From NCBI GenBank assembly GCA_965369385.1, contig CBDUQP010000002.1:783-64782 (forward strand): a DNA stretch of 64,000 nucleotides, written 5' to 3'. Position 1 is the first letter of the stretch. Each line of letters opens with the position of its first letter. The position numbers and the translations under genes were made by a program. The notes below the pieces were generated by a model that saw only the letters and a list, made by a program, of their open reading frames with translations, was not told where the DNA came from and did no database searches. This document shows, in pieces, positions 655 through 41,195 of this stretch. Source of the DNA: an uncultured Phycisphaerales bacterium (GTDB lineage: Bacteria > Planctomycetota > Phycisphaerae > SM23-33).

Positions 655-1149
655 TCAGACCAACGTTACCGCTTGCTTCTTCAGCAGTTCTTCCACATTC
701 AGTATCAAGAGAAGTTCACTGTCCAGTTTTACAACTCCAGAAATATACTTCCCGATTGTCTCACATAAGTTTGCGGGAGAGGATTCTATCTGTGACTCAT
801 CAACATCCACAACGTCGCCAATATCATCCACGAGGAACCCGGCAACATCATCACTCGTCTTCAAAGCATGCAAATCGTCACCCCTTATCCGTCGAATAGA
901 AACAAGCTCGTCTTCGCTTTTCAGAATAATATTGTGGCTATCACCGGATATAGTCCGCTCGCCAAACCCCATCCGTACGCCAAGGTCAACAATCGTCACA
1001 ATGTGCCCCCGCAGATTGATGAGTCCGCGAACAAACCCAGGCGAATGCTGAACACGGGTAATCTCAGTCTGGCGATTGATTTCCCGAACAAGCATGACAT
1101 CCACGCCAAACAGTTGACTGTCAAGCCTGAAAGTGGCGAACTGTATCAT
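655..1149 (-). CDS. cheW: Chemotaxis coupling protein CheW
   Basis: 164-aa single CheW-like domain (..FGVDVMLVREINRQTEITRVQHSPGFVRGLINLRGHIVTIVDL..), immediately downstream of cheA on the same strand. Confidence 0.85.
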   Translation of the reverse strand: MIQFATFRLDSQLFGVDVMLVREINRQTEITRVQHSPGFVRGLINLRGHIVTIVDLGVRMGFGERTISGDSHNIILKSEDELVSIRRIRGDDLHALKTSDDVAGFLVDDIGDVVDVDESQIESSPANLCETIGKYISGVVKLDSELLLILNVEELLKKQAVTLV

Positions 1150-3912
1150 CTATCCTGCCTCCCTGAATGAACATACCTTGTCAACAAACTCGACCGGATC
1201 AAGGAAGATTGTCAGATGCTCGTTCACAATCGCAGTGCCTTGCATGCCCGGACCACTGACCGTGCCCTCATCAAGAGAAACATCCACGTCCAATGCATCC
1301 ACTATCCCGGCAGCTATGATACCGGCTTTGGCTTGCATCTCACTGCCGTAGCCACTGTGCTTGGGAATAATCACGAACAATTCCTGCTGCTCGTGGCCGA
1401 TTCTCTCAAGCGAAAGATGGTCTTCGAGGCGTATAAGCGGAAGACCTGAACCCCTGTAATGGATGAATTCTCGATCGCCAATTCTCTTGATATCCGAAGC
1501 GGATATGCGTTCCAGACGCAGCACCTTGTCCTGCGGAATGGCCAAGTACTCACCGGGAGCATTCTTCAACAAAATGACGGATCGACGATTGGCGGAAGAT
1601 GCGGCGTTCAGACCGGCAAGTCTTTCCGTGTAACGCTTTACCTCGGAATCCCTATCAGTGAAGCTCAGAGCAGCCCTATCCGCCAGGCCGACAGCGTCAA
1701 TAATCATCACTACCCTACCGTCACCCATGATCGTTGACCCCGAGAAGCATCCGCTACCCTTGACGAGAGATGACAAGGCCTTGACCACAATTTCTTCACT
1801 ATCAAACAAACTGTCCACGATAACGCCAAACTTGTGGTTCCCTGACCTCAGCACCATGATGTTATAGTCACTCCGCCAACTTGCCCGCCGACCGTCTCCC
1901 TGGCGATGGGTGGTATGCCAGCATTCCTCCCCAGGCACAGGCAAATCATCGGAGCAAATATTTCCTGCTCGCCTGTCTACGATGCTCTCGCGGCGATCGC
2001 CAAACCCACCTTGCAAGCCGCTTTCCGCGTTCCTGTACGTCCGGGCCATGCCAAGAACATCCGACAACCGCACAAGCGGCAGGAGCATATCACGAATCCT
2101 TACGACACAGGCGCCATGAACGCTCTGTATGCAATTCTTCGCTTCTTTGGCACGTATGCATAGGAGCTCGACAATATCTTGTTGTGGGACAGCAAAACGC
2201 TGCCCCTCTGTGCCCACGATTAATGCCGGAACAATAGCCAAAGTCAGTGGAAGTCGCAGAAGCAGTGTTGTCCCCTTGTCAACTTGCGTGTCTATCTGAA
2301 TATGTCCACCAAGCTTCTCGATATTGTTGCGAACCACATCCATGCCAACACCTCTTCCCGAAATGTCGGTTACCTTTTCAGCCATGGAGAAACCAGGAGC
2401 AAGAATAAGATTCACCGCCTCTTGATCACTCATCCCCACAGCATCCGCGTTGGTGACCAGTCCCATTTCTACTGCCTTCGCCAGCACTTTCCTGCTGTCA
2501 ATTCCCCTGCCATCATCGCTGATCGACACGTTCACCATCCCTGATTCGTGATAGGCACGAAGGTGAATCAGCCCGGTTCTCAGCTTGCCGCCTTTATGTC
2601 GCTGTTCAGGGGTTTCCAATGCGTGATCCGCACAATTACGAACAATATGCATAAGCGGATCGCAAAGAAGCTCTATTATGCTCTTGTCCATCTCAACGTC
2701 TGAACCTTCGATCCGAAGCTCGATCTCTTTACCAAGCTTACGAGCAAGATCACGGACGACGCGAGAGAAACGCCCGAATACCAAACCTATCGGCTGCATT
2801 CGGGTCTGCATCACGCTCTCCTGCAACTCGCTGGTAACGTGATCTATATCCTGCAGTATCTCCCCCAAACCACTTATGGAATCACCATGTCCGTCAAGTG
2901 CGCTCATCAAACGATTTCGCCCCAGCACAAGCTCCCCCACAGTGTTCATCAGACGAGTGAGCAAATCCACACGCACACGCAACGTCTCCCCCCCCGACGG
3001 TTTGGCGCCATTGCTGGCGTCATTGCCACCAACATCGAGCGGTCCGGCGACATTAGATTCAGCGACACTTGCTCCACGCGTTGAATGGGCCTGGCGAGAC
3101 TCGGCAATACGTTGCTTCATCGCCGACACGTCTATCTCTTCGATACGGTCGGCCGGCAACGCTATCCCTTCGGGCAGGAACTTCGGTTCAAGCACTGATG
3201 CGAAAACCAACGAGAATGCGGTATCAGAATCTTGTGTCAGATCGAGTTTATCAGCCCGGTCGGGCAAAGCGATGACCTGTCCGACCGATGACATTGTCTT
3301 GAGCATCGCCTCAAGATCCATGCCTCGACTCAACAGGTCTTCCCCAATATTCAGGTTTACCCTGTAAACAAACATTCCCCGTTCTACCAGGGCCCTAACC
3401 CGCTTGTCGCCAAGATCACACTCGGCGTGCATTGCTTCCCTTTCCGGCATGGTTTCATCAACAGTTTTGGATACTCGCCGGGAAGGCAAAACGGGCAATC
3501 CAGATTGCGGAAGATCATCCCGATGAGTATTTTCGGAGAGAATCCGCTTGAACTCATCTATCTCTTCCTCACAGGGGACGCTGTCACTGGCATGGATGTC
3601 GTCTATCATCGCGCGAAGTTTGTCGACCCCTCGCAGCAAGACATCCATTATTTCCCGAGTGATGGCGAATCGCCCGTTACGGATAGGCACAAAAACGCTT
3701 TCCATGCAATGGCTGAGATTCTTGAGGGACTCAAATGAAAATGACCCCGCCGAACCCTTTATGCTGTGAATCGCCCTGAAGACACTGTTCAGTGTATCCG
3801 GCGAAATATTCTCCGGGTCCTTCTCCATCTTGAGCAGCTCTGGTTCGATAGCGTCAAGATTCTCGCGACTCTCTGTGACCAGATCGTTCAGCAGTTCTTC
3901 GGCAAAACCCAC
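1150..3912 (-). CDS. cheA: Chemotaxis histidine kinase CheA with two C-terminal CheW-like domains
   Basis: N-terminal HPt domain with phospho-His motif RAIHSIKGSAGSF, a dimerisation domain, a HATPase_c domain (..GRGVGMDVVRNNIEKLGGHIQIDTQVDKGTTLLLRLPLTLAI) and then two consecutive CheW-like domains. 920 aa. Confidence 0.9.
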   Translation of the reverse strand: MGFAEELLNDLVTESRENLDAIEPELLKMEKDPENISPDTLNSVFRAIHSIKGSAGSFSFESLKNLSHCMESVFVPIRNGRFAITREIMDVLLRGVDKLRAMIDDIHASDSVPCEEEIDEFKRILSENTHRDDLPQSGLPVLPSRRVSKTVDETMPEREAMHAECDLGDKRVRALVERGMFVYRVNLNIGEDLLSRGMDLEAMLKTMSSVGQVIALPDRADKLDLTQDSDTAFSLVFASVLEPKFLPEGIALPADRIEEIDVSAMKQRIAESRQAHSTRGASVAESNVAGPLDVGGNDASNGAKPSGGETLRVRVDLLTRLMNTVGELVLGRNRLMSALDGHGDSISGLGEILQDIDHVTSELQESVMQTRMQPIGLVFGRFSRVVRDLARKLGKEIELRIEGSDVEMDKSIIELLCDPLMHIVRNCADHALETPEQRHKGGKLRTGLIHLRAYHESGMVNVSISDDGRGIDSRKVLAKAVEMGLVTNADAVGMSDQEAVNLILAPGFSMAEKVTDISGRGVGMDVVRNNIEKLGGHIQIDTQVDKGTTLLLRLPLTLAIVPALIVGTEGQRFAVPQQDIVELLCIRAKEAKNCIQSVHGACVVRIRDMLLPLVRLSDVLGMARTYRNAESGLQGGFGDRRESIVDRRAGNICSDDLPVPGEECWHTTHRQGDGRRASWRSDYNIMVLRSGNHKFGVIVDSLFDSEEIVVKALSSLVKGSGCFSGSTIMGDGRVVMIIDAVGLADRAALSFTDRDSEVKRYTERLAGLNAASSANRRSVILLKNAPGEYLAIPQDKVLRLERISASDIKRIGDREFIHYRGSGLPLIRLEDHLSLERIGHEQQELFVIIPKHSGYGSEMQAKAGIIAAGIVDALDVDVSLDEGTVSGPGMQGTAIVNEHLTIFLDPVEFVDKVCSFREAG

Positions 3913-4306: not shown

Positions 4307-5167
4307 ATGACAGAAACAATCGATAATCTCGAAGCCCTGATTCACACCCTGCCCGACTACCAGAACTGGGCATTTATCAGTGACGTTGACGATGCCCTCG
4401 CCACGGACTATCTGGCGAGCACCGAGGAACGACTGGAAGATATCGAAGCCAATGCGCTTGAGTGGGAATCGAATCCGGAGAACACCGAATTCCTCGAAGC
4501 CATTCTTCGCCAGTTACATACCATTAAGGGCGATGCGGGATTTGTCGGCCTGGGCGACCTTGGCAAGGTAGTACACTCCATAGAAACGTGCCTGGGCAAC
4601 ATTCCCAAAGGCCAGGCCCAAACAGGCAACCTTCTAATAGCCAAAGATTGGTTAAGCGAAGTGATGGCTTTCCTGCGTAATGGAAGCATCGGAACTTCTT
4701 TGGACGATTCCGGCAAACAATGCCAGACTCAGAACAATGATGCCGGTTGCAACGATACAATTACACCTGCGGCAAACCTGAGGATTCTCATCGCCGTCGA
4801 TGACTTCATCAGTCAACAGCTCGTTATGGAACTGTCGAGGCACCTCGGCGATTGTCACCTGACCGGCTGCGGAAAAAGCGGTGTGGACGCATTCCAGAAC
4901 GCCCTTGAGCAAGGCACACGCTATGATCTCGTCTGCCTCGTGGGTAATGCAGGCGAAATAAGCGATTCCCTCGCTGCTATGCGATCATGCGAGAGCACCC
5001 ATAATATCAGCTCAGACGATTGCGCCAAAGTGATCGTGCTTACCGGATTCGACGGCAAGCGACCAACTTCAGCCGAAAGCAACTCCAGATGCGAATCGTA
5101 TCTCCACAGCCCGATCATGCCGACTAATCTCACCAAAGCCATCAGAAACCTGGGATTAGTCGCATAA
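4307..5167 (+). CDS. HPt-domain protein fused to a degenerate (pseudo-)receiver domain
   Basis: N-terminus has an HPt motif (..FLEAILRQLHTIKGDAGFVGLGDLGKVVHSIE..). The C-terminus is receiver-like (LRILIAVDD...KVIVLTGFDG) but the conserved phospho-acceptor Asp position reads ...RYDLVCLVGN (no Asp), and the conserved Lys is also lost. Transcribed divergently from cheA. Confidence 0.6.
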   Translation: MTETIDNLEALIHTLPDYQNWAFISDVDDALATDYLASTEERLEDIEANALEWESNPENTEFLEAILRQLHTIKGDAGFVGLGDLGKVVHSIETCLGNIPKGQAQTGNLLIAKDWLSEVMAFLRNGSIGTSLDDSGKQCQTQNNDAGCNDTITPAANLRILIAVDDFISQQLVMELSRHLGDCHLTGCGKSGVDAFQNALEQGTRYDLVCLVGNAGEISDSLAAMRSCESTHNISSDDCAKVIVLTGFDGKRPTSAESNSRCESYLHSPIMPTNLTKAIRNLGLVA

Positions 5168-8719: not shown

Positions 8720-10501
8720 ATGTCTGATACCACGAAATCCGGAGTGCACTTCCTTTGGTTGCCTATCCTTGCATTCTGCGTGATGGTGAGCCAAGCGTCG
8801 GCCGCTGAATTGCGATTCGGACTGACTGCGGACAATAAGATATGCTACACCGTCGAGTCAGGGGATAAGCTGGAAGTCCTGCAGAACTTCGACGGACGTC
8901 TGAGTTTCATGGGCGATGCCGGGAAGGGTATGCAATGCCTCTTGCGAGATGGTTCAAAAACGCCAAGCGGGAAGATTAGAGTTGGAGGCATAATCGTCAA
9001 GACCGTCGAAGGCCAGGCCAAAGCCCAAGTCAAGATCTTTGTCATCGAAGACGTTTCGAAGAAATACATATCCGGAAGAACCGATTACATAGGACTCGGC
9101 GAACTGGCAAAGGTGCCCTGCCCCCTTCAAAGTTATCAGTACGCGATCACGGAGAACAATGAACTGATCCTGGCCAGGCCGATCCCGGTATTGGCGGCGG
9201 CCCGAGTCCTGAAGGATTTCACTCGCGGGTCTGTGCTGAATGACAAGTTAACCGCTAATCATTTCATGAATGGCAAGTTCGCGATGGTTTCGGGGAAGAT
9301 ATTGCCTGATGGTCGAATTCGTCTACCCGGCAAGCAACCCGCAACTGGCCGGCCGCAGGTTGCCCGGAAAAACGGGAAAACGAAGTTACGAACGGTTATA
9401 CCGTCCAAGGGGCCCGGCATATGGGTGACCGCCATCGGACACTACGGCCAGGCCAAAGATTCGGACGTCATCGTCTACGTGTTAACGGATACGGAATTCG
9501 CCCGGTACGAGAAGAAGCAGACCCCGCTGCGACGTGGCGAAAAAGCGCCGCTGATGCTTCGTAACCTGAAGCCCGGCAGATATCATGTCGGCGTGGAGCA
9601 GCTACTGGACCCTTCCTTCATTCGGCCGAGACTGTTCAAACGACCCGCGGTGGGAGACCTGCTGGCCGGCAAGCCAACGAAAACGCAAGATCCGCTGTCT
9701 GACTACCTTGATGACCGCCCCGCAAAACGCGCTGTGGAGATTCGCGTTGTTTCCGACAGTGACAGCAAGGGCAAAACTGCTTACTATCAGATGAAGTGGT
9801 ATGTTGTCGAGGTTACGGAGAGCCACCTCGTTCCCGTGGTCTGCCTGCTTCTTCAGAAAGGGGTTCCGCTAGACAAACTGGCCGGTGAGTATCCCCGGGA
9901 GCAGCAATTCGACATCACCGCTTCCGAGGAGCTGATGCAGACATTCTGGCGCGGTATTGGCCGGTTCGGACCGGAACTGACGCCAAAGCAGCGGGAGATA
10001 ATCACGCGGCTCTTGCGGCGGGGCGGAAAGGTTTGTCTGCCTGGCGCGAGAACGCCCGCCATCGTTTCCGTTGGACCTGTGGGCAAACCACGCGCTCGGT
10101 TTGGCCTTGGCAATATCAAGCAACCTGGAAAGTCGGATCTGGTGACGCTGAATGAACCGGTTATCGTCGCCGAGTCGACGAATCGGTCCAAACCAGCTAG
10201 CTCATTACCTCGCTTCAAAGAAGAACTGAGAGGCACCAATCAGGTTCAAATCGTTAACCCCAATAAGTTCTCCGTCGAGGTACGTCTTCGCTCGGGAAAC
10301 AAGGGGGCGAATTTCACGGTAGCACCCGAACGCACCGAATCGGTCTTTGTCGGTGACGGCTGTTATGAAGTGTACTTCGTCTATTCGAATCAGCCCAAGG
10401 TGCTGTATCGTGGCGAAAGCGTAAGCCTTCATGGCAGTGGGGTGCGGATCAAACTCGTGCAAGTGGCCGGCGGTAACTACTCTATTCGTAAGGCCCAATA
10501 G
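8720..10501 (+). CDS. Secreted hypothetical protein (593 aa, no recognisable domain)
   Basis: ATG preceded by GGAG (the right-hand direct repeat of the MITE-like element) at -12. N-terminal signal peptide FLWLPILAFCVMVSQASAAE. Long uninterrupted ORF with no matches to families I recognise. Confidence 0.6.
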   Translation: MSDTTKSGVHFLWLPILAFCVMVSQASAAELRFGLTADNKICYTVESGDKLEVLQNFDGRLSFMGDAGKGMQCLLRDGSKTPSGKIRVGGIIVKTVEGQAKAQVKIFVIEDVSKKYISGRTDYIGLGELAKVPCPLQSYQYAITENNELILARPIPVLAAARVLKDFTRGSVLNDKLTANHFMNGKFAMVSGKILPDGRIRLPGKQPATGRPQVARKNGKTKLRTVIPSKGPGIWVTAIGHYGQAKDSDVIVYVLTDTEFARYEKKQTPLRRGEKAPLMLRNLKPGRYHVGVEQLLDPSFIRPRLFKRPAVGDLLAGKPTKTQDPLSDYLDDRPAKRAVEIRVVSDSDSKGKTAYYQMKWYVVEVTESHLVPVVCLLLQKGVPLDKLAGEYPREQQFDITASEELMQTFWRGIGRFGPELTPKQREIITRLLRRGGKVCLPGARTPAIVSVGPVGKPRARFGLGNIKQPGKSDLVTLNEPVIVAESTNRSKPASSLPRFKEELRGTNQVQIVNPNKFSVEVRLRSGNKGANFTVAPERTESVFVGDGCYEVYFVYSNQPKVLYRGESVSLHGSGVRIKLVQVAGGNYSIRKAQ

Positions 10502-10509
10502 GCCCGTCG

Positions 10510-11548
10510 TCAGCCTTCGCTATTGGGGCCGGCGAGCGTGGAGCCTTCTTCGAATTCACCCGGCAGGATGAGCCTGGACCTGCATGGCTTGTCCGGGGAT
10601 TCCAATCGCCCCAGCAACATGGCCGCGGCCTCGTAGCCCATGTCGTAGCGGGCGTAGCTCATTCGCGTCAGTGCCGGCCAGATAACTTCCATGAAGTGAT
10701 CGCCATCGCAACACGCCAGACCGTAGTGAACGCCCGGCAGCATACCGCGTGTCTGCATAACGTCACGAGTCCAGGCGGCGTATGACGGCGATTGTGCGAT
10801 CACGGCCACATCCGGAGCAAGCAGCGATGCAAGCTCGTCGCTTCGCCCTTCGGCATCTTCGCGTCGCTGTGCGGTGAACTCTCGCACTTCGAGCCCCGCT
10901 TCGGCTGCCCCCGAGATTACACCGCGGTATCTCGCCTGGGCGGAGTAGTGAGGTTGCAGGCCACCTTCGGTGGTTTCCATATCGAACGAATACCAGAGGA
11001 TACTGCTGTAGCCCTTCTCCGCGGCCGCCAGCGCCAGCGTCCTGCCGACAGTCAACTCGTCACGCCTCACGCATCCCTCATCCCGCCAGACATTGTTGTC
11101 CAGCCAGATGCACCTGTCCTTGAACTCTTCATCCACGCGGGCGGTCACCTTATCGGACAAGACATCGAGCAGGATGATCCCATCCAGGACATGCTCCTCG
11201 AAGATGCGAGAATGCGTCCCGTCGCGGGTATCGCTGATCCTTATAAGCCCCATATACCCCTGAGCGTTGAGGCAGTCGTTAATGCCGAGAAAGAACTCGT
11301 ACGCCGGCAGGTACTTGAAGCGTTTCTTGCCAGGCTCGCTTCGGGGCAGGACGCCTATGGCCTTCGTTTTGCCGGTTCGCATCGCCCGGGCGACCAGGTT
11401 CGGGCGGTAATTCATATCCCTGGCTGCATCGAGCACCAGCTTCTTCGTCTCGTCCCGGAATCTACCGCGATTGTTCAGCACGTGGCTGACGGTCGGCAGC
11501 GAAAGGCCGGTCTTCTGGGCGAGTTGTTTTGAGTGTTACGCGGGCCAT
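10510..11548 (-). pseudogene. LacI-family transcriptional regulator interrupted by a 1-bp insertion (frameshift) in an A4 run just after the start codon
   Basis: ATG at 11548-11546 gives MARVTLKTTRPEDRPFAADRQPRAEQSR*. A -1 shift after MARVTLK restores ..QLAQKTGLSLPTVSHVLNNRGRFRDETKKLVLDAARDMNYRPNLVARAMRTGKTKAIGVL.., near-identical to the intact paralog at 17847-18887. The shift is in the CTCAAAACAACTC run (plus-strand TTTT 11527-11530). The ORF track's 10510-11481 is the internal GTG-initiated remainder. Confidence 0.7.
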
Positions 11549-11569: not shown

Positions 11570-11586
11570 CGATAATAACGTTATAT
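11570..11586. promoter_or_regulatory. Candidate LacI-type operator, palindrome GATAATAACGTTATATC (perfect 10-bp core ATAACGTTAT)
   Basis: Read from the sequence, ~22 bp upstream of the LacI-1 ATG. Related AACGTT-centred palindromes occur at 18901-18924 and 12661-12689. Confidence 0.45.
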
Positions 11587-11717
11587 CAATTATATCGCTA
11601 TTCCGGGTAAGCACAAGCTCATTCCCGGCCGCCGATGGCCTCGCCCGGCGGCGGCCAGCGCACAGCAACGCCTCGCAGTTGCCCGCGAGGCGTTGGTATA
11701 TTGGCGAAAGGGGGATA

Positions 11718-12393
11718 TCAGAAGCTGCGTTTACGGCGAAGCAGCGTCAGCAGCCCGCCAAGGCCCAGCAGGCTCATCGTGGCCGGCTCGGGGACGGCGT
11801 CACATCGTATCTCACTCAGGCCGGCAATCGTGCTACCGTAACTGGTTGTGATGTTGAATTTGACCAAGCGGGCGTCGGCCGCGGCAGAGAAGCTGCTCAG
11901 ATCAATCGTCTGTCCGAAGTCAACGTAGTGCAGCCCAGGGGCTTCTGTGAACGTGAAGTTGCCCAGCGATGTGAAGGCGCCGCCTACGCTGGAGGCTATA
12001 AGGATTTCCACGTTGTTCGCCCCCCGGTCCGTCATGCCGAGTTCGTTGTAGTTCCACACCTTGAATGAATCCAAATCGTAGTTGGCTTCAAGATCAAAAG
12101 TGATGTCCACCGGCAGGAGATCATCAGGATCACCGAACGTGGCGTATGTAACCCACATGGTGCCTGCGGTGCCCGGCAACTATGGTGTGGTAACATGGAA
12201 GCCCGTAGCCTCGTCGAATCCGCTCCCGTCAACGACATGAATGCCAGTGCGATCTTAGCTGCCGGCCAGGACCAGTTCGGATGAGACGCCTTCGATGGTG
12301 ACTCCCGTAATCGTCTGGCCATAGACCGATGAACCACCAAGTGCCGAGATCACGGCCAATATGCAACATAACAGCGATGCGAATCTCTTCATT
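11718..12393 (-). pseudogene. PEP-CTERM-anchored exported protein with two in-frame stop codons (TAA 12256-12258, TAG 12181-12183) in an otherwise continuous frame
   Basis: Manual translation: MKRFASLLCCILAVISALGGSSVYGQTITGVTIEGVSSELVLAGS*DRTGIHVVDGSGFDEATGFHVTTP*LPGTAGTMWVTYATFGDPDD...AVPEPATMSLLGLGGLLTLLRRKRSF. It has a signal peptide at the N-terminus and a PEP-CTERM sorting signal at the C-terminus, with the same frame throughout. The ORF track only shows the 153-aa tail (11718-12179). Confidence 0.6.
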
Positions 12394-12660
12394 TTACGCT
12401 CCTCTCATATCATATGAACCAAATCGTGGCCCAACCCTTGTGGCAGGGCACACATCCTTGATTAGCACGACAGCGCTAGATTTGGCGATTGCGCCCTTGG
12501 CCGGAACGTAGTTGCAGGAGTTACGTCGCGTTCGCACCTGATGGTCTTGCCAAGACAAACGACTTACGAAGAAGTAGCGCTGTCGTGTTAGAGAAGTAGA
12601 ACGTTGAATCGCCATCGCGATTTGCCTCTGCATCGAGGTAACGAGCTAGTGCTATGTAGA

Positions 12661-12689
12661 TACAACGCTATACCAATACAACGTTATAT
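12661..12689. promoter_or_regulatory. Two adjacent AACG(T/C)T half-palindromic sites (TACAACGCTATA / TACAACGTTATAT), candidate LacI-type operators upstream of the PEP-CTERM gene
   Basis: Sequence similarity to the ATAACGTTAT operators at the two LacI paralogs. Confidence 0.3.
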
Positions 12690-12945
12690 TAATCGTGAAT
12701 TGCAATTCTGTCAAGGCGCAATTCGGTGACAGTCTCATCGCCAAGAATCGCCAAACCCGCCAGCGTCAGATACGCCTGGGCCGACAACCCCATCTGCAAT
12801 CTCTACAACCGCGAAAACCTGCCCGCCTGCCCGTTTAGAACAGATGCAGACTAACCTGAATCTGACCTGCCCAACGAGCAACAGCCCCCTTGCCGAGACA
12901 TCATGAGTCGCGGCCGAGGGGCTGTTCTGATCAACGATCCGGGTA

Positions 12946-17057: not shown

Positions 17058-17786
17058 TTACGGCCTGACCAATGGCCCCCAGGGGATAGTGACGCCAGGC
17101 GCACCCGTACCCCACCCCAGTGGGGTCGCGGTAGCTTCATCCAGAGGACGTAAACTACCGTCAGCATAGGTGAAGTTGCATTTGTTCGCATGCCTGTATG
17201 CCGGCCATTGGCCCCAACGGAATATCGTCATGGCGGCACCGGTGGGAGGAGGGCTAAAAGAATAGGGATTGGTGACGTCATTGGATATGTCGCCAAGCAT
17301 CGCCAACTCCGACGGATTCCGAAGATCGCTCTCGTTAATCTTGTAGCACATTTCATTATCGGGGTTGGAGGGAACAGGATCGGGTATGCGGGGGGCCAAC
17401 CAGTAATTATAGCCGATATCCATGCTCCGGCAGGGGCCGTATTCACGCTTGACCGACGGACACCTGATAAGCCATCGGGTGGACTCGTAATATTCCTCTT
17501 CACCGAGCGGCAGTATGCACCAGGGCAGGCCCGACCCTGTATATCCACCAAAGCCATCGTTACCTCGCCAGAGACCGTTGGTTTCCGAAGGCGGATAGTT
17601 ACCGTTGTTATCCCTCACGTAGTCGACTAACCGCAACCCCAGAGCACGATGATGGCTCATGCACTCGACCCCTCGCGCCATATCCAGAGCACGGTTAACC
17701 GCGGGCAATAGCAGCGACGCGAGAATAGCAATAATCGCGATCACCACAAGTAACTCTATTAGTGTGAATGCTTGTCGTTTAATCAT
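17058..17786 (-). CDS. Prepilin-type N-terminal cleavage/methylation domain protein, DUF1559 (H-x9-DG) family
   Basis: [30 protein letters not shown] pseudopilin N-terminus and C-terminal [14 protein letters not shown] (H-x9-DG). Family abundant in Planctomycetota/Lentisphaerota/Kiritimatiellota. Confidence 0.85.
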
Positions 17787-17846
17787 CTTTGCACCTCTTC
17801 AATCTCTTTGCCTTTGCAGGACAATAGCCCGTCAAAAGCAGGCCAG

Positions 17847-18887
17847 TCAGGATTCCATCTGGGGGCCAGGAAGCGTAGACCCCTCCTCAAATTCACCGGG
17901 CAGTACCAATCTCGACCTGCACGGTTCGTTCGGTGATTCCAATCGTCCAAGCAGCATGGACGCTGCCTCGCGGCCCATGTCATAGCGGGCATAAGCCATC
18001 CGCGTCAGCGCCGGCCATGTGTCTTCCAGATAGTGATCGCCATCGCAACACGCCAGACCATAGTGAACACCCGCCAGCATACCACGCAACTCCATCACAT
18101 CACGAGTCCAGCAAGCAAACGATGGTGCATGGGTGATCACGGCCGTGTCGGATGTGATCAGCGATGCCAGCTGGTCGCCCCCGGCTTCGGCATCTTCGCG
18201 CAACTCCGAAGTGAACTCGTGCACTTCAAGCCCTGCTTGCCTGGCACCTTCCAGCACTCCACGACGCCTGGCCCCGGTAGAATAGTGACGCGGTGAACCT
18301 TCGCAAATTGAATCAAGGTCCGAGGAATACCAGACGATGCTGCGATAGCCTTTCTCCGCGGCCTTCAAAGCCAGCGTCCGGCCAACAGCTTCCTCGTCAC
18401 GCCTTATGCACCCGGCATCCCGCCAGACATTGTTGTCCAGCCAGATGCAACTTTCATTGAACTCATCGTCCACGCGTCGGCTCACATCATCCGGCAAGAC
18501 ATCAATCAGGATAATCCCGTCCACCGCATGCTCCTCGAACACGCGCGAACGCGACCCGTCGCGGACATCGCCAATCCTCACAAGACACAACACATATCCC
18601 TCGGCATCGAGACGGTCGTTTATGCCCAGAAGGAATTCGTACGCCGGGAGGTACTGAAAGAGTTTGTGCCCTGGCTCGTTGCGAGTCAGCACACCAACAG
18701 CCTTCGTCTTGCCAGTCCGCATAGCCAGGGCAGCCAAATTCGGCTTGTAGCCCAACTCACTGGCGGCAGCTAGAACCAGCTTCTTCGTCCTGTCGCGATA
18801 GTTCCCACGCTCGTTCAGCACGTGACTAACCGTCGGCTGCGAGAGCCCTGTCTTCTGGGCGATCTGCTTGAGTGTTACGCGAGCCAT
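17847..18887 (-). CDS. LacI-family transcriptional regulator (intact paralog)
   Basis: MARVTLKQIAQKTGLSQPTVSHVLNERGNYRDRTKKLVLAAASELGYKPNLAALAMRTGKTKAVGVL.. HTH plus periplasmic-binding-fold effector domain. The ORF track begins at TTG 18902. ATG 18887 with AGAGGA at -12 is the more likely start. Confidence 0.8.
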   Translation of the reverse strand: MARVTLKQIAQKTGLSQPTVSHVLNERGNYRDRTKKLVLAAASELGYKPNLAALAMRTGKTKAVGVLTRNEPGHKLFQYLPAYEFLLGINDRLDAEGYVLCLVRIGDVRDGSRSRVFEEHAVDGIILIDVLPDDVSRRVDDEFNESCIWLDNNVWRDAGCIRRDEEAVGRTLALKAAEKGYRSIVWYSSDLDSICEGSPRHYSTGARRRGVLEGARQAGLEVHEFTSELREDAEAGGDQLASLITSDTAVITHAPSFACWTRDVMELRGMLAGVHYGLACCDGDHYLEDTWPALTRMAYARYDMGREAASMLLGRLESPNEPCRSRLVLPGEFEEGSTLPGPQMES

Positions 18888-18900: not shown

Positions 18901-18924
18901 AATAATCATAACGTTGTGGTTATT
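18901..18924. promoter_or_regulatory. Candidate LacI-type operator AATAATCATAACGTTGTGGTTATT (10/12 symmetric around AACGTT)
   Basis: Imperfect palindrome 14 bp upstream of the LacI-2 start, suggesting autoregulation. Confidence 0.4.
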
Positions 18925-21942: not shown

Positions 21943-23184
21943 TCACTGCCAGACGCTATCTATCACCTCGCGGGCAAGCTGCACCCACTGGCGGGCACGG
22001 GTCGGGTCTTTCTCGACGGTCTCAACATCCTTCAGCGTAATATCAACGTGCCTGCCGAGACATGCTTTCAGGTCGCTTTCGAGGATCGATGTGATCCGCC
22101 CCCTGTCGAAACCGTACCCAACCATATCTGTCGGGCTGGGACGATAGCTGATTACGTAGTCGGTGCCTATCTGGTCGGCGCAGGCGGCTACGTCGGCAAA
22201 TGGCGACACTGCTATGCGACGCAGATTCCTGATCTTACGCAGCATGTCTATCTTCCGAGTCAGATCCTCGCAACAGCCGTAAGTCACCAGGCCGAATTTC
22301 TCCATAATCGGCATCTGGTACCGCAGCAGGAACTCCTCGTGCATGTCGGGTGAAACCAGTGCGTATTCCTGGGCGGCCATGAAACACCACAACTGCTCGC
22401 GTTTGACGCCCGGCGAGTTGGCGGCAGGATCCGGCAATTCGGCTGCATAGCACATCGCCTGGTTCTCGTGCGAAGTTAGGCACCAGTCGCCATCAGCTTC
22501 GGCTTTGTCATGCACAGCCATCACACCATCCCGCATGAACGCCAACAGTCCATGAAGCCATTGCGGATTATCGAACATATCGAGCATGAAGTTTTCCATG
22601 CCACGCAGATGCCCCAGGTACATTGAAATATCCCCGTAGAATGCCCGAAAGAAGGGACCACGATCCAGGTTGACCGTGAGAATGTCGCCGATGGCATCGG
22701 TGAGCATGCCGACGTTGGCGGCGGTGGCTGGTTCGTCAATACCATGCCACGGCGTCACAAGCTTCTCGATGTCGGCAGGATCGGCGAGCGGGTGTACCGC
22801 CTTATAGGAACCGGCACTATCTCCCGTGGTCTGCCTTTGCGACTCTACCCCCCAGCCCACGCACTCGTAAACCGGCGAAACATTTACCCACGGCTCGAAC
22901 ACCGAGTCATCGTCAAGCGAAGCCCAGAACAGCTTGTGCCGCAATTGGTTCTCAATTGTGCGAAACAGCCCATCGGTGCACTCGCACCGCGATTCGGCCA
23001 TTTCGCCCCACGCAAAGGCCCGCATATATATGAGCGGCCTGGTAGGTATCAGGCTGTTCTTCTTTCGCCACAAGTCGCGACGGGTCTCCTGAACAGGATC
23101 GCTGCAAACATCGGCATACCGCCTGGCCAGCTCCCTCAGAATCTCCACATCCCGCTGCCTTGACTGCATATCACTGGAACACAT
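21943..23184 (-). CDS. Uroporphyrinogen decarboxylase (URO-D)-like family protein, second copy
   Basis: 413 aa, URO-D-like TIM-barrel family features, divergent from the AraC regulator at 23266. Confidence 0.5.
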   Translation of the reverse strand: MCSSDMQSRQRDVEILRELARRYADVCSDPVQETRRDLWRKKNSLIPTRPLIYMRAFAWGEMAESRCECTDGLFRTIENQLRHKLFWASLDDDSVFEPWVNVSPVYECVGWGVESQRQTTGDSAGSYKAVHPLADPADIEKLVTPWHGIDEPATAANVGMLTDAIGDILTVNLDRGPFFRAFYGDISMYLGHLRGMENFMLDMFDNPQWLHGLLAFMRDGVMAVHDKAEADGDWCLTSHENQAMCYAAELPDPAANSPGVKREQLWCFMAAQEYALVSPDMHEEFLLRYQMPIMEKFGLVTYGCCEDLTRKIDMLRKIRNLRRIAVSPFADVAACADQIGTDYVISYRPSPTDMVGYGFDRGRITSILESDLKACLGRHVDITLKDVETVEKDPTRARQWVQLAREVIDSVWQ

Positions 23185-24983: not shown

Positions 24984-27170
24984 ATGGCAGCAACCGTAAC
25001 CGCTCGATACGAACAGCTCCTGGCGAAAGCCGGGGAAGTGGTCGACAAACGTGGATACCCGAAGAAGATACGAATCCAGGTTGGCAACGCCACATGCGAA
25101 AACGCCGCTGGCTCACGAGAAGTTCTCGATGAACTGACAAAACATCTGGAGGCATCTGGCAGGAGCGACATCACCATACACCAGACAGGTTGCACTGGCA
25201 GATGCAGTTGCGAGCCCATCGTGGGGGTCGCCCTTCCAGGCGAATCTCTAGTCAAATACCAACGTGTCGATCGTGAAAAGGCACATGAGATATTCAGCAC
25301 CCACGTGCTTGGCGGGAAACCGGTCGAGAATCTGATTCTTGACGATCAGCCGGGTGTCCGTGCCCGCAACGAGTTCTTTTTCTGCAATCACCCCAACTGC
25401 AAGAACCGTACTGAGATGGACATGAAGAACCGGTTCGAGCAGATGCTTGCCGAAAGCGATCTGGAAGCAGGTACCGCTGCAGTGATACAGGCAAACTGCC
25501 TCGGCCTGTGCAAAAATGCGAGCAATGAGAATGCAGCCTATATACTTGCCCTGCCTTCACGAACAGTCTATCAAGTCAATGAAGAGTCCGACCTGCAGGA
25601 AATACTGGACTGCCACATTGCCAAGGGGCAGACAGTCGAGCGATTGGCAATCCAACATACCTCACCAGCTACGCAACTGTTCTTTGAACTCTACGGTGAC
25701 GTTGCGTTTTTCAACAAGCAGAGTCGCATCGCCCTGAGAAATGCAGGCATCGTCAATCCCGAGGATATCGACGAGCACATTGCACTGGGCGGATTCCATG
25801 CACTGGCGACCACTTTGGATAAGAACGATCCGCAATGGCTTATCGGAGTAGTAACCGATTCCAAGCTGCGAGGCAGAGGTGGCGGCGGGTATCCAACCGG
25901 AAAGAAGTGGGCAAACGCGGCCGCCGAGCAAAGCGACACGAAGTACATCATCTGCAACGCGGACGAAGGCGATCCTGGCGCGTTCATGGATCGCAGCATG
26001 CTGGAGAGCGATCCACTATCGGTGCTTGAAGGAATGGTCATAGGTGGATTTGCGATAGGTGCCTCCTGGGGATACATCTACGTGCGTGCGGAATATCCCC
26101 TTGCGATCAACCGAATAGAAAACGCCCTGAGTCTCGCCCGACAGCGTGGGCTCCTGGGCAAGAATATTCTCAATAGCGGGTTCGACTTTGACGTGGAAAT
26201 ACGCCTGGGAGCAGGCGCTTTTGTGTGCGGAGAAGAGACCGCCCTGATACATTCGATAGAGGGCAAACGCGGCGAACCCAGAATCCGCCCGCCCTACCCG
26301 AGCACCAGCGGACTGTGGGGCAAGCCTACTGTCATAAATAACGTTGAGACATTCGCAAACATCCCGGTCATAATCCAGTACGGTGCGGAATGGTTCGCAC
26401 GCATCGGCAGCAAAACAAGCGGGGGAACGAAGGTTTTCGCCCTGGCGGGCAAGGTTCGCCAGACCGGGCTGGTCGAAGTGCCAATGGGCACAACGCTTCG
26501 ACAAATCGTGTACGATATCGGCGGCGGAATACCCAACGACAAGAAACTGAAAGCCATCCAAACTGGCGGGCCCGCGGGCGGGTGCCTTCCCGAAGAATGG
26601 TTGGACACACCGGTGGATTTCGACAGCCTCGCCAAGGCTGGCTCCATCATGGGTTCAGGGGGAATGATAATAATGGACGAGGACGACTGCATGGTCGATA
26701 TCGCCCGTTACTTCCTCACCTTCTCGCAGGATGAGTCGTGTGGCAAGTGCACCCCATGCCGCGAAGGATCAAAGCGAATGCTGGAAATCCTGAACCGAAT
26801 AACTACCGGAAAGGGAGTGCCTGAGGACATCGCCAAACTCCAGCGCCTTGGCAAGCTCATGCAGAAAGCATCGCTCTGCGGGCTTGGACGCGCTGCGGCC
26901 AACCCAGTACTCAGCACACTGAAATACTACCGTGATGAATACGATGCCCACATAAATGACAAATACTGCAGCGCACACAAATGCACATCACTGGTGACAT
27001 ATATTATCAATGAGGACAAGTGCATCGGATGCACTGCATGCGCACGCAACTGCCCGGTAACATGCATATCGGGCAAACCAAAAGAATCGCATTTGATAGA
27101 CCAATCACAATGCATCAAGTGTGGGCGGTGTTATGAAGTATGCAAATTTGACGCGGTGATTCGCCAATAG
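24984..27170 (+). CDS. hydB: [FeFe]-hydrogenase NAD(P)-binding subunit HydB/HndC (NuoF-like, with N-terminal thioredoxin-like [2Fe-2S] and C-terminal 2x[4Fe-4S] domains)
   Basis: NuoF core (..KYIICNADEGDPGAFMDRSMLESDPLSVLEGM..GAGAFVCGEETALIHSIEGKRGEPR..). C-terminal ferredoxin CIGCTACARNCP...CIKCGRCYEVCK. 728 aa. Confidence 0.85.
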   Translation: MAATVTARYEQLLAKAGEVVDKRGYPKKIRIQVGNATCENAAGSREVLDELTKHLEASGRSDITIHQTGCTGRCSCEPIVGVALPGESLVKYQRVDREKAHEIFSTHVLGGKPVENLILDDQPGVRARNEFFFCNHPNCKNRTEMDMKNRFEQMLAESDLEAGTAAVIQANCLGLCKNASNENAAYILALPSRTVYQVNEESDLQEILDCHIAKGQTVERLAIQHTSPATQLFFELYGDVAFFNKQSRIALRNAGIVNPEDIDEHIALGGFHALATTLDKNDPQWLIGVVTDSKLRGRGGGGYPTGKKWANAAAEQSDTKYIICNADEGDPGAFMDRSMLESDPLSVLEGMVIGGFAIGASWGYIYVRAEYPLAINRIENALSLARQRGLLGKNILNSGFDFDVEIRLGAGAFVCGEETALIHSIEGKRGEPRIRPPYPSTSGLWGKPTVINNVETFANIPVIIQYGAEWFARIGSKTSGGTKVFALAGKVRQTGLVEVPMGTTLRQIVYDIGGGIPNDKKLKAIQTGGPAGGCLPEEWLDTPVDFDSLAKAGSIMGSGGMIIMDEDDCMVDIARYFLTFSQDESCGKCTPCREGSKRMLEILNRITTGKGVPEDIAKLQRLGKLMQKASLCGLGRAAANPVLSTLKYYRDEYDAHINDKYCSAHKCTSLVTYIINEDKCIGCTACARNCPVTCISGKPKESHLIDQSQCIKCGRCYEVCKFDAVIRQ

Positions 27171-27296
27171 CACTAGTACTCTGTCACACGCGACAATTAG
27201 CGATGGTAACCTGGCCGCAACGGCGGACAGGCAACGACTTACGAATATTCAGGTTCGCAAATTTCGCCGTGACAAAGCACCCGGGCAGGGATATCC

Positions 27297-29090
27297 ATGA
27301 GCAAGAACACAAAAGAGATAATCAACATAACCCTTGACGGCCAGGAAGTTGAGGTAGCCAAGGGGCAGACGATAATGCAGGCCGCCGAGCGATTCGGCAT
27401 CCACATCCCACGTCTGTGCTACCACCCGGAGCTGAGCCTGGCTGGGGCATGCCGCGTCTGCATTGTCGAGGTGGAGGGCATGCCTTCTCACATGGCATCT
27501 TGCTCGGTTGAAGTATGGGACGGTATGAAGGTGTTAACGCACTCACAGGAAATCCACCAGGCGCGGCGAGATATTGTGGAACTGCTTCTGGACAACCATA
27601 ATAAGGACTGCCAAACATGCCATCGCGACGGAAATTGCGAGCTCCAGAATCTCGCCTACTCACTCGGGATTCGCGAAAGACTCTTCGAGGGCGAACGAAA
27701 AGACTTCGCCCCGGACAACACAAGTCACTCGGTCGTGCGGGATCCGTCCCGCTGCATACTTTGCGGCAGATGCACCCGCGTTTGCAGCGAAATTCAGGGG
27801 GTGAGCAATCTGGGGAGAATGGGTCGCGGATTCAACACGCTGGTATCCCCGGCCCACGGGATGGATATGGACGAGTCGGTGTGCATTCAATGCGGCCAGT
27901 GCATAATGGTGTGCCCCACCGCCGCCTTGGTGGAAAAATCAAGCATAGATGACGTCTGGCAGGCACTTGCCGACCCCAACATGCATGTTGTGGTGCAGAC
28001 GGCCCCGTCGATACGGGCCGCCATCGGCGAAGGGTTCGGGCTCAAACCCGGGACACCGTCCACTAACAAAATGGTCTGCGCCCTGCGACATTTGGGGTTT
28101 GATCGCGTATTCGATACAAACTTCGGCGCCGATTTGACGATAGTTGAGGAATCCAATGAACTGATAAATCGCCTGAATGGCGATGGCCCGCTACCAATGC
28201 TCACGTCGTGCTCGCCGGGATGGATAAGCTTCATGGAAAAATTCTATCCGGAGCTGATACCCAATGCATCTACATGCAGATCGCCAATGAGTATGACATC
28301 GGTCCTGGCAAAAACCTACTACGCACATAAGGTCGGCATCGATCCAAAGAACGTCTACATGGTGGCTGTCATGCCCTGCGTAGCCAAGAAATACGAAGCC
28401 GCGCGGCCGGAACATGCAACACCCGACGGAACGCCATATACCGACGCGGTACTGACTACGCGAGAACTTATCCAGATGATAAAGTCTTGGGGAATCGGAT
28501 ACTGGACCATGCCAAACATAGATATATGGCAGCTCCCTAACGATGAGTTTGACGATCCCATGGGCAGTTCCAGCGGCGCTGGCGACATCTTCGGCGCGAC
28601 CGGCGGCGTTATGGAAGCGACATTGCGAACAGCTGCAGAAAGAATCACCGGGCAAAAACACGGTAAGATAGACTTCCGGGAAGTCCGTGGCGTTAAGGGA
28701 CTCAAGGAAGTAAGCATGGACATTGGCTCAAAAACACTGAACATTGCGGTCGCAAACGGTTTGGCCAACGCGAAACGCGTTCTGGACATGGTAGTCAGCG
28801 GCGAAAAGGAATTCCACGTAATAGAGGTAATGGCATGCCCCGGAGGATGCATCGGAGGTGGAGGACAGCCGTATCCTCCCAAAGACTCCTACGCCATGGA
28901 CCCCGAGTTGCTCGAAATGCGAACCGAAGCGCTCTACTCGATCGATGCCGACAAGGAAGTACGACGATCCCACATGAACCCATCGATACAGAAACTCTAT
29001 GAAGATTTCCTGATCGAACCCGGCAGTAAGTTCGCACACGAATTGCTGCACACCAGCTACCAACCGCGTCTTCCTAGGGGCATTCAATGA
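27297..29090 (+). CDS. hydA: [FeFe]-hydrogenase catalytic subunit HydA (M3 type)
   Basis: N-terminal 2Fe-2S ferredoxin plus His-ligated and 2x[4Fe-4S] domains. H-cluster motifs L1 TSCSPGW, L2 MPCVAKKYE and L3 EVMACPGGCIGGGGQP. Confidence 0.9.
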   Translation: MSKNTKEIINITLDGQEVEVAKGQTIMQAAERFGIHIPRLCYHPELSLAGACRVCIVEVEGMPSHMASCSVEVWDGMKVLTHSQEIHQARRDIVELLLDNHNKDCQTCHRDGNCELQNLAYSLGIRERLFEGERKDFAPDNTSHSVVRDPSRCILCGRCTRVCSEIQGVSNLGRMGRGFNTLVSPAHGMDMDESVCIQCGQCIMVCPTAALVEKSSIDDVWQALADPNMHVVVQTAPSIRAAIGEGFGLKPGTPSTNKMVCALRHLGFDRVFDTNFGADLTIVEESNELINRLNGDGPLPMLTSCSPGWISFMEKFYPELIPNASTCRSPMSMTSVLAKTYYAHKVGIDPKNVYMVAVMPCVAKKYEAARPEHATPDGTPYTDAVLTTRELIQMIKSWGIGYWTMPNIDIWQLPNDEFDDPMGSSSGAGDIFGATGGVMEATLRTAAERITGQKHGKIDFREVRGVKGLKEVSMDIGSKTLNIAVANGLANAKRVLDMVVSGEKEFHVIEVMACPGGCIGGGGQPYPPKDSYAMDPELLEMRTEALYSIDADKEVRRSHMNPSIQKLYEDFLIEPGSKFAHELLHTSYQPRLPRGIQ

Positions 29091-29626
29091 AAACAAACAC
29101 TCCCGTAAACACCCTGGAAAGCGTCCAGACCCTCGCCCGCAAGGCACTGCCGAAAGATGTGGTCGACAAAATCAATGACGCCCTCAAAGAGGAGCAACCT
29201 CGCGGCAGATTGATCTCCATCCTGCACAAACTCCAAAGCCACGAGGGCTACCTCAGCACAATGCAGATGGACGCTGTAGCCCAACTGCTAGGCGTGCCGA
29301 CCAGCGAGGTCTGCGGGGTAGCTACGTTCTACCATTTCTTCAATCTCGTGAAACCCGGCAGATTCCGGATCAGCGTATGCATGGGCACCGCATGCTATGT
29401 AAAGGGGGCCGACAAGGTGCTGGACAGAATCCAACAGGAGCTTGGCATATCGCTCGGAGAAACCACCCCGGATGGCATGTTCTCGCTGGCACAGGCACGC
29501 TGCCTGGGCACCTGCGGACTCGCACCGATCATTACCGTCAATGAAACAGTCTACGACCGAATAACCGCCGACCAGATCCCGGCAATCATCGACAAATACG
29601 TGACCGAAGCGCACAGCAGCATGTGA
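29087..29626 (+). CDS. hydC: [FeFe]-hydrogenase small thioredoxin-like [2Fe-2S] subunit HydC/HndA (NuoE-like)
   Basis: 179 aa NuoE-like (..CMGTACYVKGADKVLDRIQQELG..CLGTCGLAPIITVNE..). Start overlaps the hydA stop (ATGA). Confidence 0.8.
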   Translation: MKTNTPVNTLESVQTLARKALPKDVVDKINDALKEEQPRGRLISILHKLQSHEGYLSTMQMDAVAQLLGVPTSEVCGVATFYHFFNLVKPGRFRISVCMGTACYVKGADKVLDRIQQELGISLGETTPDGMFSLAQARCLGTCGLAPIITVNETVYDRITADQIPAIIDKYVTEAHSSM

Positions 29627-39003: not shown

Positions 39004-39744
39004 CTACCTGCGGTTCCTGCGGAACATCGCCAGTGCGCCGAGGGCCAGCAAACTCAGCGTAGCCGGTTCGGGAACGGCAGCATACTCGACATGACCCGTC
39101 ACCGTAATACCTTCGGCAAAGCCATCGGTGAAACCAGCTATATCGAGTCCGAAAGTACGAGTCGAAGACGTGCCCGCAACAGCAACATCAGCTGGATTCC
39201 AGCTAACAAGATCATAATCATTTACCAGTGCCCAAGACAGACCGCTGCCGGTCAGGGCAACTGCTGCCGACGTGCCGGTATTGCCTGCCGTGGTCTCCGC
39301 CCAGTTAGCATAATCATCACCAGCAACCTGGTAAACGGTGGCGTGGCGGCCGGCATAGACGCTGATACTGTCAATCACGAGCGTCATCGGGGCAGCGCCT
39401 TGCCCTGTCAGTCCACCGGTATACTCCGCAGCAATCGTAACGCCGAAGCTGATCCTGCCGGAGTAATTGCCGGTAGTTCCATCAGCAAGTATCCCGGACC
39501 CAAATGTTGGCCCAGTACTCGACCAGAAGGCACCTACCGGACCTGGGGCAATAGTGACAGTCACATCAAAATCACCCGTTACCCCGGTGTTGGTAGCGGA
39601 CGTTTCGGTGTCACCCCAACCAGCTTCAGTACCGCACCCATACGCCAGCGAAAACGTGTTGCTGGTCAGAACTTGGGCCGACGCCCCGGTCGTCACCGCG
39701 ACCAAAACAGCCAACGCTGCTACAATTCCTAGAGTTCTCATCAT
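39004..39744 (-). CDS. PEP-CTERM domain exported protein
   Basis: Signal peptide MMRTLGIVAALAVLVAVTTGASAQ and C-terminal VPEPATLSLLALGALAMFRRNRR sorting signal. Gly/Thr-rich body. Confidence 0.8.
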   Translation of the reverse strand: MMRTLGIVAALAVLVAVTTGASAQVLTSNTFSLAYGCGTEAGWGDTETSATNTGVTGDFDVTVTIAPGPVGAFWSSTGPTFGSGILADGTTGNYSGRISFGVTIAAEYTGGLTGQGAAPMTLVIDSISVYAGRHATVYQVAGDDYANWAETTAGNTGTSAAVALTGSGLSWALVNDYDLVSWNPADVAVAGTSSTRTFGLDIAGFTDGFAEGITVTGHVEYAAVPEPATLSLLALGALAMFRRNRR

Positions 39745-40043: not shown

Positions 40044-41195
40044 GTGGTAGTAGATTGCATTACTGAAGAAGCGAATTGCAGCACTGATGTACGGCGAATT
40101 CATAGGATTATGAGAAGAATACCGGCACAAACCGACCTTGCAAACGACCTTGCCAATGCCCTGCTACAGGACGTTCGTGACAGGGGATTGCAAGAGGGCG
40201 ACCGCTATTACACCACGGAAGAAGCCGGCCATAAGTTCTCCGTTTGCAAAGAAACGGCAAGAAAGGCCATGAAAATACTGGCCGGACGCGACGTGCTGGT
40301 GCGCCTCCGGCGGAGGGGAACTTTCGTGGGCTCGATGGCCGCAGCCAGACCGCAGCCCAAAGTCGCCCGAAGGCGGCTTCTCGTGCTGACACCGCCTGTC
40401 GTTTGCAGTTCCCCACAACTCGAATTCAGTCAGATTCCGCATTTTCTGGATCAGGCGATGAACAACATCTTCATCCAGAGCCATATCCTCCCTCTGGATG
40501 CGGACGTATCGATTATTCGGGAAATGGTCGACAACGTCAGAAACACCGGCCATCTTGACGGGATAGTCAGCGGTTCCCGCACGCGCGAGGTGCATGATTA
40601 TATGACCTCACTTGATGTCCCGGCGGTGGTTCTGGGCACGCTGGATTCGGGACAGACCGACCTGTCATCGCTGGACCTGGATTACAATCAAGCCGGTAGA
40701 CTGCTGGCGGAATATGTGATTGGACTGGGACACACCCACGTAATCGCCCAGTTGGCCAATAATTTTCGCGGGGATCATCACTTCGCCGACAGCATCGCCG
40801 ACGTTATGTCGGCAGCTCATTTACCGCCGAGTTCCCTGAGAGTAAGAACCTTCTGCGGTGATCTTGAAACCGTCCGTGCCAATTTCAGAGACCTGCTGAG
40901 CAATAACAACCGCCCGACAGCCATCATAACGCGCGGCCGGGCGCTGGCGGATACTGCGGCGGCGGCAGCCGATGACGTGGGGCTTTGCATCAGCAAGGAT
41001 ATCGAGATCGTCTGGTCGGGAAGCGCACTGAAAGTCGAAGAGTATTCCCCTTACGTCAACGTCCAGTCAAAACTCGGCATGGACGAGATAGCGTCGATGG
41101 TAGCGAAGATGCTCGAAGACCAGAGAGAGGGCAGAGCGCTTGAGGAAAAACACGTCTTCATCCCCGCCGAACTGTGCATGCCCTCGGTAAATTAG
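40044..41195 (+). CDS. GntR-type HTH regulator with PBP-like effector domain
   Basis: wHTH (..YYTTEEAGHKFSVCKETARKAMKILAGRDVLVRLRRRGTFV..) followed by a LacI/PBP-like domain. The true start may be an internal Met (~40108). Confidence 0.6.
   Translation: MVVDCITEEANCSTDVRRIHRIMRRIPAQTDLANDLANALLQDVRDRGLQEGDRYYTTEEAGHKFSVCKETARKAMKILAGRDVLVRLRRRGTFVGSMAAARPQPKVARRRLLVLTPPVVCSSPQLEFSQIPHFLDQAMNNIFIQSHILPLDADVSIIREMVDNVRNTGHLDGIVSGSRTREVHDYMTSLDVPAVVLGTLDSGQTDLSSLDLDYNQAGRLLAEYVIGLGHTHVIAQLANNFRGDHHFADSIADVMSAAHLPPSSLRVRTFCGDLETVRANFRDLLSNNNRPTAIITRGRALADTAAAAADDVGLCISKDIEIVWSGSALKVEEYSPYVNVQSKLGMDEIASMVAKMLEDQREGRALEEKHVFIPAELCMPSVN

Follow-up and report, generated by a model that had tools for sequence, protein, structure and literature searches.

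This locus raises the question of why a gene for a PEP-CTERM surface protein, preserved in a single reading frame from its signal peptide to its sorting signal, is interrupted by two different stop codons. The gene, whose product is called the lectin below, lies next to a broken gene for a LacI-family regulator in the window, that is, the whole 64-kb stretch of DNA that was analyzed. The stops may be recent mutations, errors of the deposited sequence or codons that are read through.

Reading Frame of the Lectin Gene and the Deposited Record

Translation of the minus strand from position 12392 to position 11718 gave a single frame of 225 codons, composed of 222 sense codons, two internal stops and the terminal TGA. 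The signal-peptide-like N-terminus MKRFASLLCCILAVISALGGSSVYGQ and the PEP-CTERM signal are in a common reading frame, which closes with VPEPATMSLLGLGGLLTLLRRKRSF followed by TGA. In the alignment with MKRFASLLCCILAVISALGGSSVYGQ, the N-termini of the homologs are equivalently hydrophobic. An earlier sequence-only reading had placed both signals in one frame of 225 codons, and the minus-strand translation bore this out. It had also described two stops about 25 codons apart and no frameshift; the TAA and the TAG are indeed separated by 25 codons (75 bp), and no frameshift is required. The positions that it gave have to be corrected, since those of the stops (12256–12258 and 12181–12183) and of the gene end (12393) were each one base too high; the ATG occupies 12392–12390. 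Its main description, a PEP-CTERM surface-protein gene disrupted solely by two nonsense codons, is supported by the translation and by the Pfam matches.

The PEP-CTERM class was described by Haft et al. 2006 (PMC1569441) and is represented by the models TIGR02595 and PF07589. Like the PEP-CTERM/exosortase proteins, the lectin has an N-terminal signal peptide and, at the C-terminus, a VPEP motif, a hydrophobic helix and an Arg/Lys cluster. Unlike them, its frame is interrupted twice, by the TAA at codon 46 and the TAG at codon 71, and as the sequence stands, no uninterrupted ORF could yield a sorted product.

Both parts of the gene are present in the public record as separate gene calls, namely the N-terminal ORF of 45 aa (P0046) and a C-terminal remnant of 146 aa (P0001, MWVTY...), and both are found on the same 65,075-bp NCBI/ENA contig. 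Thus, the stops belong to the sequence as deposited, which the window reproduces. As a correction of the annotation, the two calls should be combined into a single gene that is marked as disrupted.

The neighboring proteins were all singleton clusters at 90% identity among ~15 billion proteins, so that, in effect, there has been only one sampling of the organism. An exact-flank DNA pattern had no matches in metagenome contigs. A protein-seeded genome scan revealed no close relative and only a 50% identical one, and in the corresponding scan of metagenomes, the only match was one of 59% at the C-terminal sorting signal (residues 126–152). No close ortholog was found in a search of 5.8 billion proteins, the best match having 59% identity.

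Organization of the Locus

On the minus strand, the genes follow each other in the order LacI2, prepilin-type protein, GH2-like glycosidase, a 553-bp spacer, lectin and LacI1. The coordinates of the features are given in Table 1.

Table 1. Features of the lectin locus (positions in the window; strand "." for palindromic sites).
Feature	Position	Strand	Basis
LacI2, intact LacI paralog, 346 aa	17847..18887	-	Pfam, comparison with repaired LacI1
Operator-like AYAACGTTRT motif upstream of LacI2	18908..18917	.	motif count
Prepilin-type N-methylation-motif protein	17058..17786	-	Pfam/NCBIfam
GH2-like glycosidase, 1339 aa	12946..16965	-	Pfam
Sigma-70-like promoter match TTGACA-17-TAATAT, 10/12, ~290 nt upstream of ATG	12686..12714	-	consensus match only
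Operator-like palindrome ACAACGTTAT / ATAACGTTGT upstream of lectin	12678..12687	.	motif count
Gene remnant for a secreted PEP-CTERM-anchored single-domain DUF4457/CBM32(discoidin)-like protein (lectin)	11718..12392	-	sequence, Pfam, homologs
Signal-peptide-like N-terminus, codons 1–26	12315..12392	-	sequence inspection and homolog N-termini
In-frame TAA, codon 46	12255..12257	-	base-level reading; F column of homologs, GxFDR motif
In-frame TAG, codon 71	12180..12182	-	base-level reading; D/E column of homologs
PEP-CTERM sorting signal (VPEP, hydrophobic helix, RRKR) and TGA	11718..11798	-	PF07589, TIGR02595
GC-rich hairpin ~20 nt downstream of TGA, -27.3 kcal/mol, z = -4.8	11661..11700	-	folding
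Operator-like palindrome ATAACGTTAT upstream of LacI1	11575..11584	.	motif count
LacI1, LacI-family regulator, +1 frameshift at codon 8	10510..11548	-	sequence, Pfam, LacI2 comparison
A4 run with extra A (AAA CAA -> AAAACAA)	11527..11530	-	sequence

The GH2-like protein showed GH2 domain matches in its first ~530 residues only, and no Pfam match was obtained for its C-terminal ~800 residues. The leader between the promoter-like site and the lectin ATG (window 12393–12685, minus strand) is unusually long, at ~285 nt. It contains an ORF of 79 aa (12394–12633) with no Pfam match, and the leader itself has no Rfam match. A Shine-Dalgarno-like GAGAGGAG is kept at the lectin gene. The hairpin downstream of the gene is strong and terminator-like but has no U-tract. 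A canonical intrinsic terminator after the lectin gene was rejected, as the terminator scan found none; the hairpin may be a non-canonical terminator typical of the lineage.

Protein Family and Predicted Fold

In the search of 5.8 billion proteins, the conceptual lectin matched 45 proteins at E ≤ 1e-5 (best 2e-60), and for many of them the query coverage was 87–100%, including both sides of both stops. The Pfam PEP-CTERM model PF07589 scored 27.5 bits (cutoff 20.7) at residues 199–221, NCBIfam TIGR02595 scored 26.2 bits (cutoff 16), and Pfam DUF4457 (PF14652) scored 35.1 bits (cutoff 26.7). The F5_F8_type_C model PF00754 remained below its cutoff (18.4 vs. 28.2). The protein matches spanning both stops, together with the Pfam scores above the cutoffs, show that the lectin frame is not a chance ORF. 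The aligned homologs have lengths of 207–238 aa, originate from metagenome assemblies of Planctomycetota and Verrucomicrobiota (Verrucomicrobiales) and have the same layout as the lectin, i.e., a signal peptide, one domain and PEP-CTERM. The lectin is a broken member of the known PEP-CTERM/DUF4457 class, and nothing in it departs from known kinds.

The closest intact homolog, P0002, is 59% identical to the lectin, and its AlphaFold2 model had a mean pLDDT of 86. Based on Foldseek, the best PDB matches of this model were galactose/GalNAc-binding CBM32/discoidin modules, including 4lks (Clostridium perfringens GH31 CBM32-3), 4a44 (GH89 CBM32-5) and 2v72 (NanJ CBM32). The E-values were about 1e-9 to 1e-8, the target-normalised TM scores were 0.78–0.83, and ~180–188 columns were aligned. 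A profile search against PDB sequences gave weak matches, again to CBM32/discoidin modules. Because the CBM32 matches extend over so many columns of the P0002 model, the domain very probably starts directly after the signal peptide, so that the fold would include the residues that precede the stops. If the domain does start there, the segment lost to the stops is part of the beta-sandwich. This segment includes the invariant residues V31, I33, S37, R48 and H66 as well as the DGSGF motif.

The lectin family thus resembles the CBM32/F5-F8 type C modules in the predicted fold of P0002, and the lectin gene adjoins a gene for a GH2-like glycosidase under sugar-type regulators. The differences are in the sequence identity, which is only ~12–22%, with the family filed as DUF4457, and in the architecture: the lectin module stands alone and is PEP-CTERM-tethered, whereas the CBM32 modules are appended to enzymes. 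Going by the fold and the genomic context only, the lectin would bind sugar.

Three kinds of settings were observed for the homologs. Some are encoded in tandem arrays of 4–5 small PEP-CTERM genes (L004, 8001–11385), some beside large DUF4457/Laminin_G_3 and CotH/LTD proteins (L003, L008), and others beside Peripla_BP-type regulators and sulfatases (L006, L009, L010). Elsewhere, too, homologs often adjoin Peripla_BP-type regulators and carbohydrate-active enzymes. The DUF4457 PEP-CTERM family could therefore be described as CBM32-like surface lectins that are often paired with sugar-sensing regulators. Synteny with the homolog loci L002–L004, L006 and L008–L010 was considered and rejected: the loci are not orthologous, and the GH2-like protein is unrelated to the product of the gene found upstream of P0002.

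A second PEP-CTERM gene, which is intact and encodes 246 aa, was found in the window at 39004–39744 (minus strand). Its passenger region has no Pfam match, and only the sorting signal is common with the lectin. This intact gene shows that the organism uses the PEP-CTERM system; no exosortase (EpsH/Xrt) gene is among the genes of the 64-kb window. The second PEP-CTERM gene is divergent from a gene for a GntR-HTH/Peripla_BP regulator at 40044–41195 (plus strand), and it seems that, in this organism, small PEP-CTERM proteins are repeatedly paired with sugar-type regulators.

Sequence Constraint in the Lectin Gene

The column of the TAA (codon 46) is occupied by F in 22 of 31 homologs, and that of the TAG (codon 71) by D in 16 and by E in 5 of the same number. 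None of the 45 homologs has a truncation or a stop at either column. Judged against these full-length proteins, from which the stops are absent, the lectin gene has the premature stops expected of a nonsense pseudogene.

Apart from the stops, no signs of relaxed selection, seen as an excess of changes at conserved columns, were detected in the lectin. Its mean identity to the family was 0.61 before, 0.52 between and 0.55 after the stops, and the homolog-to-homolog identity over the same columns was 0.56, 0.47 and 0.54, respectively. At the columns conserved to at least 90%, the lectin deviates at 2 of 48 (family median 3), and at the 80% level the count is 8 of 80 (median 8). This lack of drift implies that the inactivation is very recent or that the sequence is in error. 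It was also argued earlier that pseudogenes usually accumulate indels as well. This carries little weight here: a gene with no drift has suffered few mutations of any kind, so the absence of indels is uninformative.

Single-base substitutions that create a stop make up 55 of the 1998 possible in the lectin gene (2.75%), and under neutrality the mean wait for a second nonsense codon is therefore ~36 substitutions. Under neutral decay, it would appear within five substitutions in ~13% of cases and within ten in 24%. A second nonsense codon within the first handful of substitutions is thus unlikely but not extreme. The number of base changes depends on the ancestral codons. From the consensus codons TTY (F) and GAY (D), each stop needs two base changes; from codons for L (TTA), Y or E (GAG), one change per stop is enough. 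Since the nearest relative is only 59% identical, the ancestral codons are not recoverable.

LacI Genes and a Candidate Operator

The neighboring LacI gene had been reported as disrupted too, and this is confirmed: LacI1 has one extra A at codon 8, and when it is removed, the product is 71% identical to LacI2 over 345 aa. Peripla_BP_3 is present in LacI1. The LacI HTH in its main ORF covers only the profile positions 20–46 and scores 19.2 bits, below the cutoff of 27, so that an intact HTH joined to Peripla_BP is lacking, the HTH being split by the +1 frameshift. The same reading had contrasted the disrupted pair with an intact paralogous module at 17058–18887. This stands for LacI2 alone. The partner at 17058–17786 is a prepilin-type N-methylation-motif protein with neither PEP-CTERM nor DUF4457; no lectin paralog is present there, and the idea of a paralogous module was rejected.

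The 10-bp palindrome AYAACGTTRT occurs at exactly three sites in 64 kb, against 0.18 expected, and none of 100 shuffles reached three. Within the window, the sites are confined to the regions upstream of LacI1, LacI2 and the lectin gene. The site of the lectin gene abuts the -10 hexamer of the promoter-like site with a 1-base overlap. Based on this distribution, we propose AYAACGTTRT as a candidate operator common to both LacI paralogs, through which the lectin gene would be a LacI target. The LacI HTH and Peripla_BP_3 architecture and the upstream AYAACGTTRT sites resemble LacI repressors with CG-centred palindromic operators. The locus differs from typical cases in that one of the two paralogs is frameshifted within the HTH, and the operator binding is putative.

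Origin of the Lesions

Taking these data together, we are inclined to explain the locus by a very recent co-decay of a regulator–target pair, an explanation that we hold to be reasonably probable. The intact lectin would have been exported and, after exosortase processing, presented at the cell surface, where it would probably bind a galactose-type glycan. It would have belonged to a sugar-utilisation locus under LacI control, together with the 1339-aa GH2-like glycosidase. In the form deposited, the lectin gene is dead, with translation ending after 45 residues, at codon 46, and LacI1 is also dead, its helix-turn-helix being broken by the +1 frameshift. After one partner or the function itself had become dispensable, the other partner would lose constraint, and the lesions would be too young for other drift to have built up. 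The only long downstream ORF (146–153 aa) has neither the signal peptide nor the N-terminal strands of the fold; its product could be neither exported nor folded and therefore gives no functional surface protein.

The distribution of the lesions is consistent with this explanation. All three lie within ~730 bp in two adjacent genes, and given one lesion, two more would fall in the same 0.8-kb segment of the 64 kb with a probability of ~1.6e-4. According to Pfam scans, ~45 other long ORFs in the window contain no frameshift or internal stop; the Pfam-matched ORFs were mostly well covered, and about ten without a Pfam/NCBIfam match were not judged in this way. The scans also took in 10 short gap ORFs. 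Since no other clearly broken gene was found among the ~45 long ORFs, a generally noisy assembly is unlikely, and this explanation was rejected on the combined set of long and short gap ORFs.

As in young bacterial pseudogenes, the lectin gene has premature stops relative to full-length homologs, its regulatory signals are still present, and a functionally linked neighboring gene is also inactivated. It differs from them in that the two nonsense codons stand in a gene where drift is otherwise undetectable, a combination that is somewhat unexpected under neutral decay. It is also odd for a young pseudogene that each stop takes two base changes, if the consensus F and D codons are ancestral. We infer a biological origin of the lesions and not a sequence error. 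In that case, the locus would illustrate, on a small scale, the joint decay of a regulator and its target.

It is possible, although we rather doubt it, that the lesions are a consensus, sequencing or assembly artefact and that the lectin gene, and perhaps LacI1, is intact in the organism. Low local coverage, a polishing error or miscalled bases would then have caused at least one of the three lesions. The lectin otherwise looks fully constrained, and the promoter-like site, the operator, GAGAGGAG, the signal peptide, the sorting signal and the hairpin are all kept. The stops fall on conserved F and D/E columns whose consensus codons need two changes each, and the LacI1 lesion is a one-base homopolymer gain, which is a typical class of error. 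Furthermore, the source appears to be a metagenome assembly from a single sampling, so its bases come without independent confirmation. Published work shows many "pseudogenes" with internal stops to be assembly errors, linked to the coverage and the assembler used (Cooley & Wright 2024, PMC11017572). Against this, the absence of any other clearly broken gene in the 64-kb window indicates a low general error rate, and random errors are not expected to place three lesions in ~730 bp. Stop-creating substitution errors are rare in short-read assemblies. In addition, the lesions hit two apparently linked genes, which is predicted by biology and not by error. If the lesions are errors after all, the locus adds another spurious pseudogene to those in metagenome assemblies.

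It is very unlikely that the lesions are real but belong to different chromosomes, i.e., that coexisting loss-of-function alleles were spliced by the assembly consensus. Such a situation could arise if a surface protein that is derepressed or targeted by phages is selected against, as the loss of the LacI repressor might make expression constitutive and costly. Mixed alleles would explain two nonsense codons without drift. However, the stops are only 75 bp apart, and typical reads or long k-mers keep the phase over such a distance.

Highly unlikely, in our opinion, is the proposal that both stops are real and non-neutral, having been selected as knock-outs after the loss of LacI, or else that they are leaky. 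In the former case, the loss of the repressor would turn the derepressed lectin into a cost or a risk, for instance by exposing the cell to phages or predators that target it, and independent knock-out alleles would then be selected. In the latter case, the lectin would be kept at a very low level. If the non-neutral variant were true, the locus would capture adaptive gene loss under way in an uncultured anaerobe of the PVC type.

Functional recoding, by which a suppressor tRNA, programmed readthrough or an altered code would yield some full-length protein, has in its favor the intact frame and the undrifted sequence and nothing else; it is extremely unlikely, because decoding would have to extend to two different stop codons, the homologs have sense codons at both columns and are not truncated there, and neither stop is TGA, which excludes selenocysteine. 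Selenocysteine is encoded by UGA, and pyrrolysine does not explain TAA. TAA-G and TAG-T are not known to be leaky contexts. Among the 56 ORFs of at least 90 aa selected greedily in the window, TAA ends 13 and TAG ends 14. Since both codons terminate many other genes, the genetic code is standard, and an alternative code or stop reassignment was rejected on this basis and on that of ORFs of up to 1339 codons that remain intact. A suppressor tRNA or a nearby recoding RNA was likewise rejected: the window contains no tRNA gene, and no Rfam element of note was matched in the 10–14 kb region. The earlier ranking, which put recent inactivation or a sequence error far ahead of recoding, is upheld by the lack of drift, the usual TAA and TAG terminators, the lack of tRNA genes in the window and the homologs without stops.

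The significance of the locus beyond annotation is little. The by-products of the analysis are a structural label for the DUF4457 subfamily and the candidate LacI operator.

Other Features of the Window

Six long ORFs (413–770 aa) have no Pfam/NCBIfam match and are located at 8720–10501, 21943–23184, 43539–45077, 49738–52050, 55320–57245 and 62528–63832. The first of them (8720–10501) has a signal-peptide-like N-terminus and is convergent with the broken LacI1. An electron-bifurcating [FeFe]-hydrogenase-like set of three genes (NuoF-like, HydA-like and NuoE-like) was found at 24984–29626 (plus strand), and its presence suggests an anaerobic lifestyle. A chemotaxis-type signalling cluster at 655–3912 (minus strand) and 4307–5167 (plus strand) encodes CheW, a CheA-like kinase and an Hpt-domain protein; the CheA-like kinase is 920 aa long, with multiple CheW-like stretches matched.
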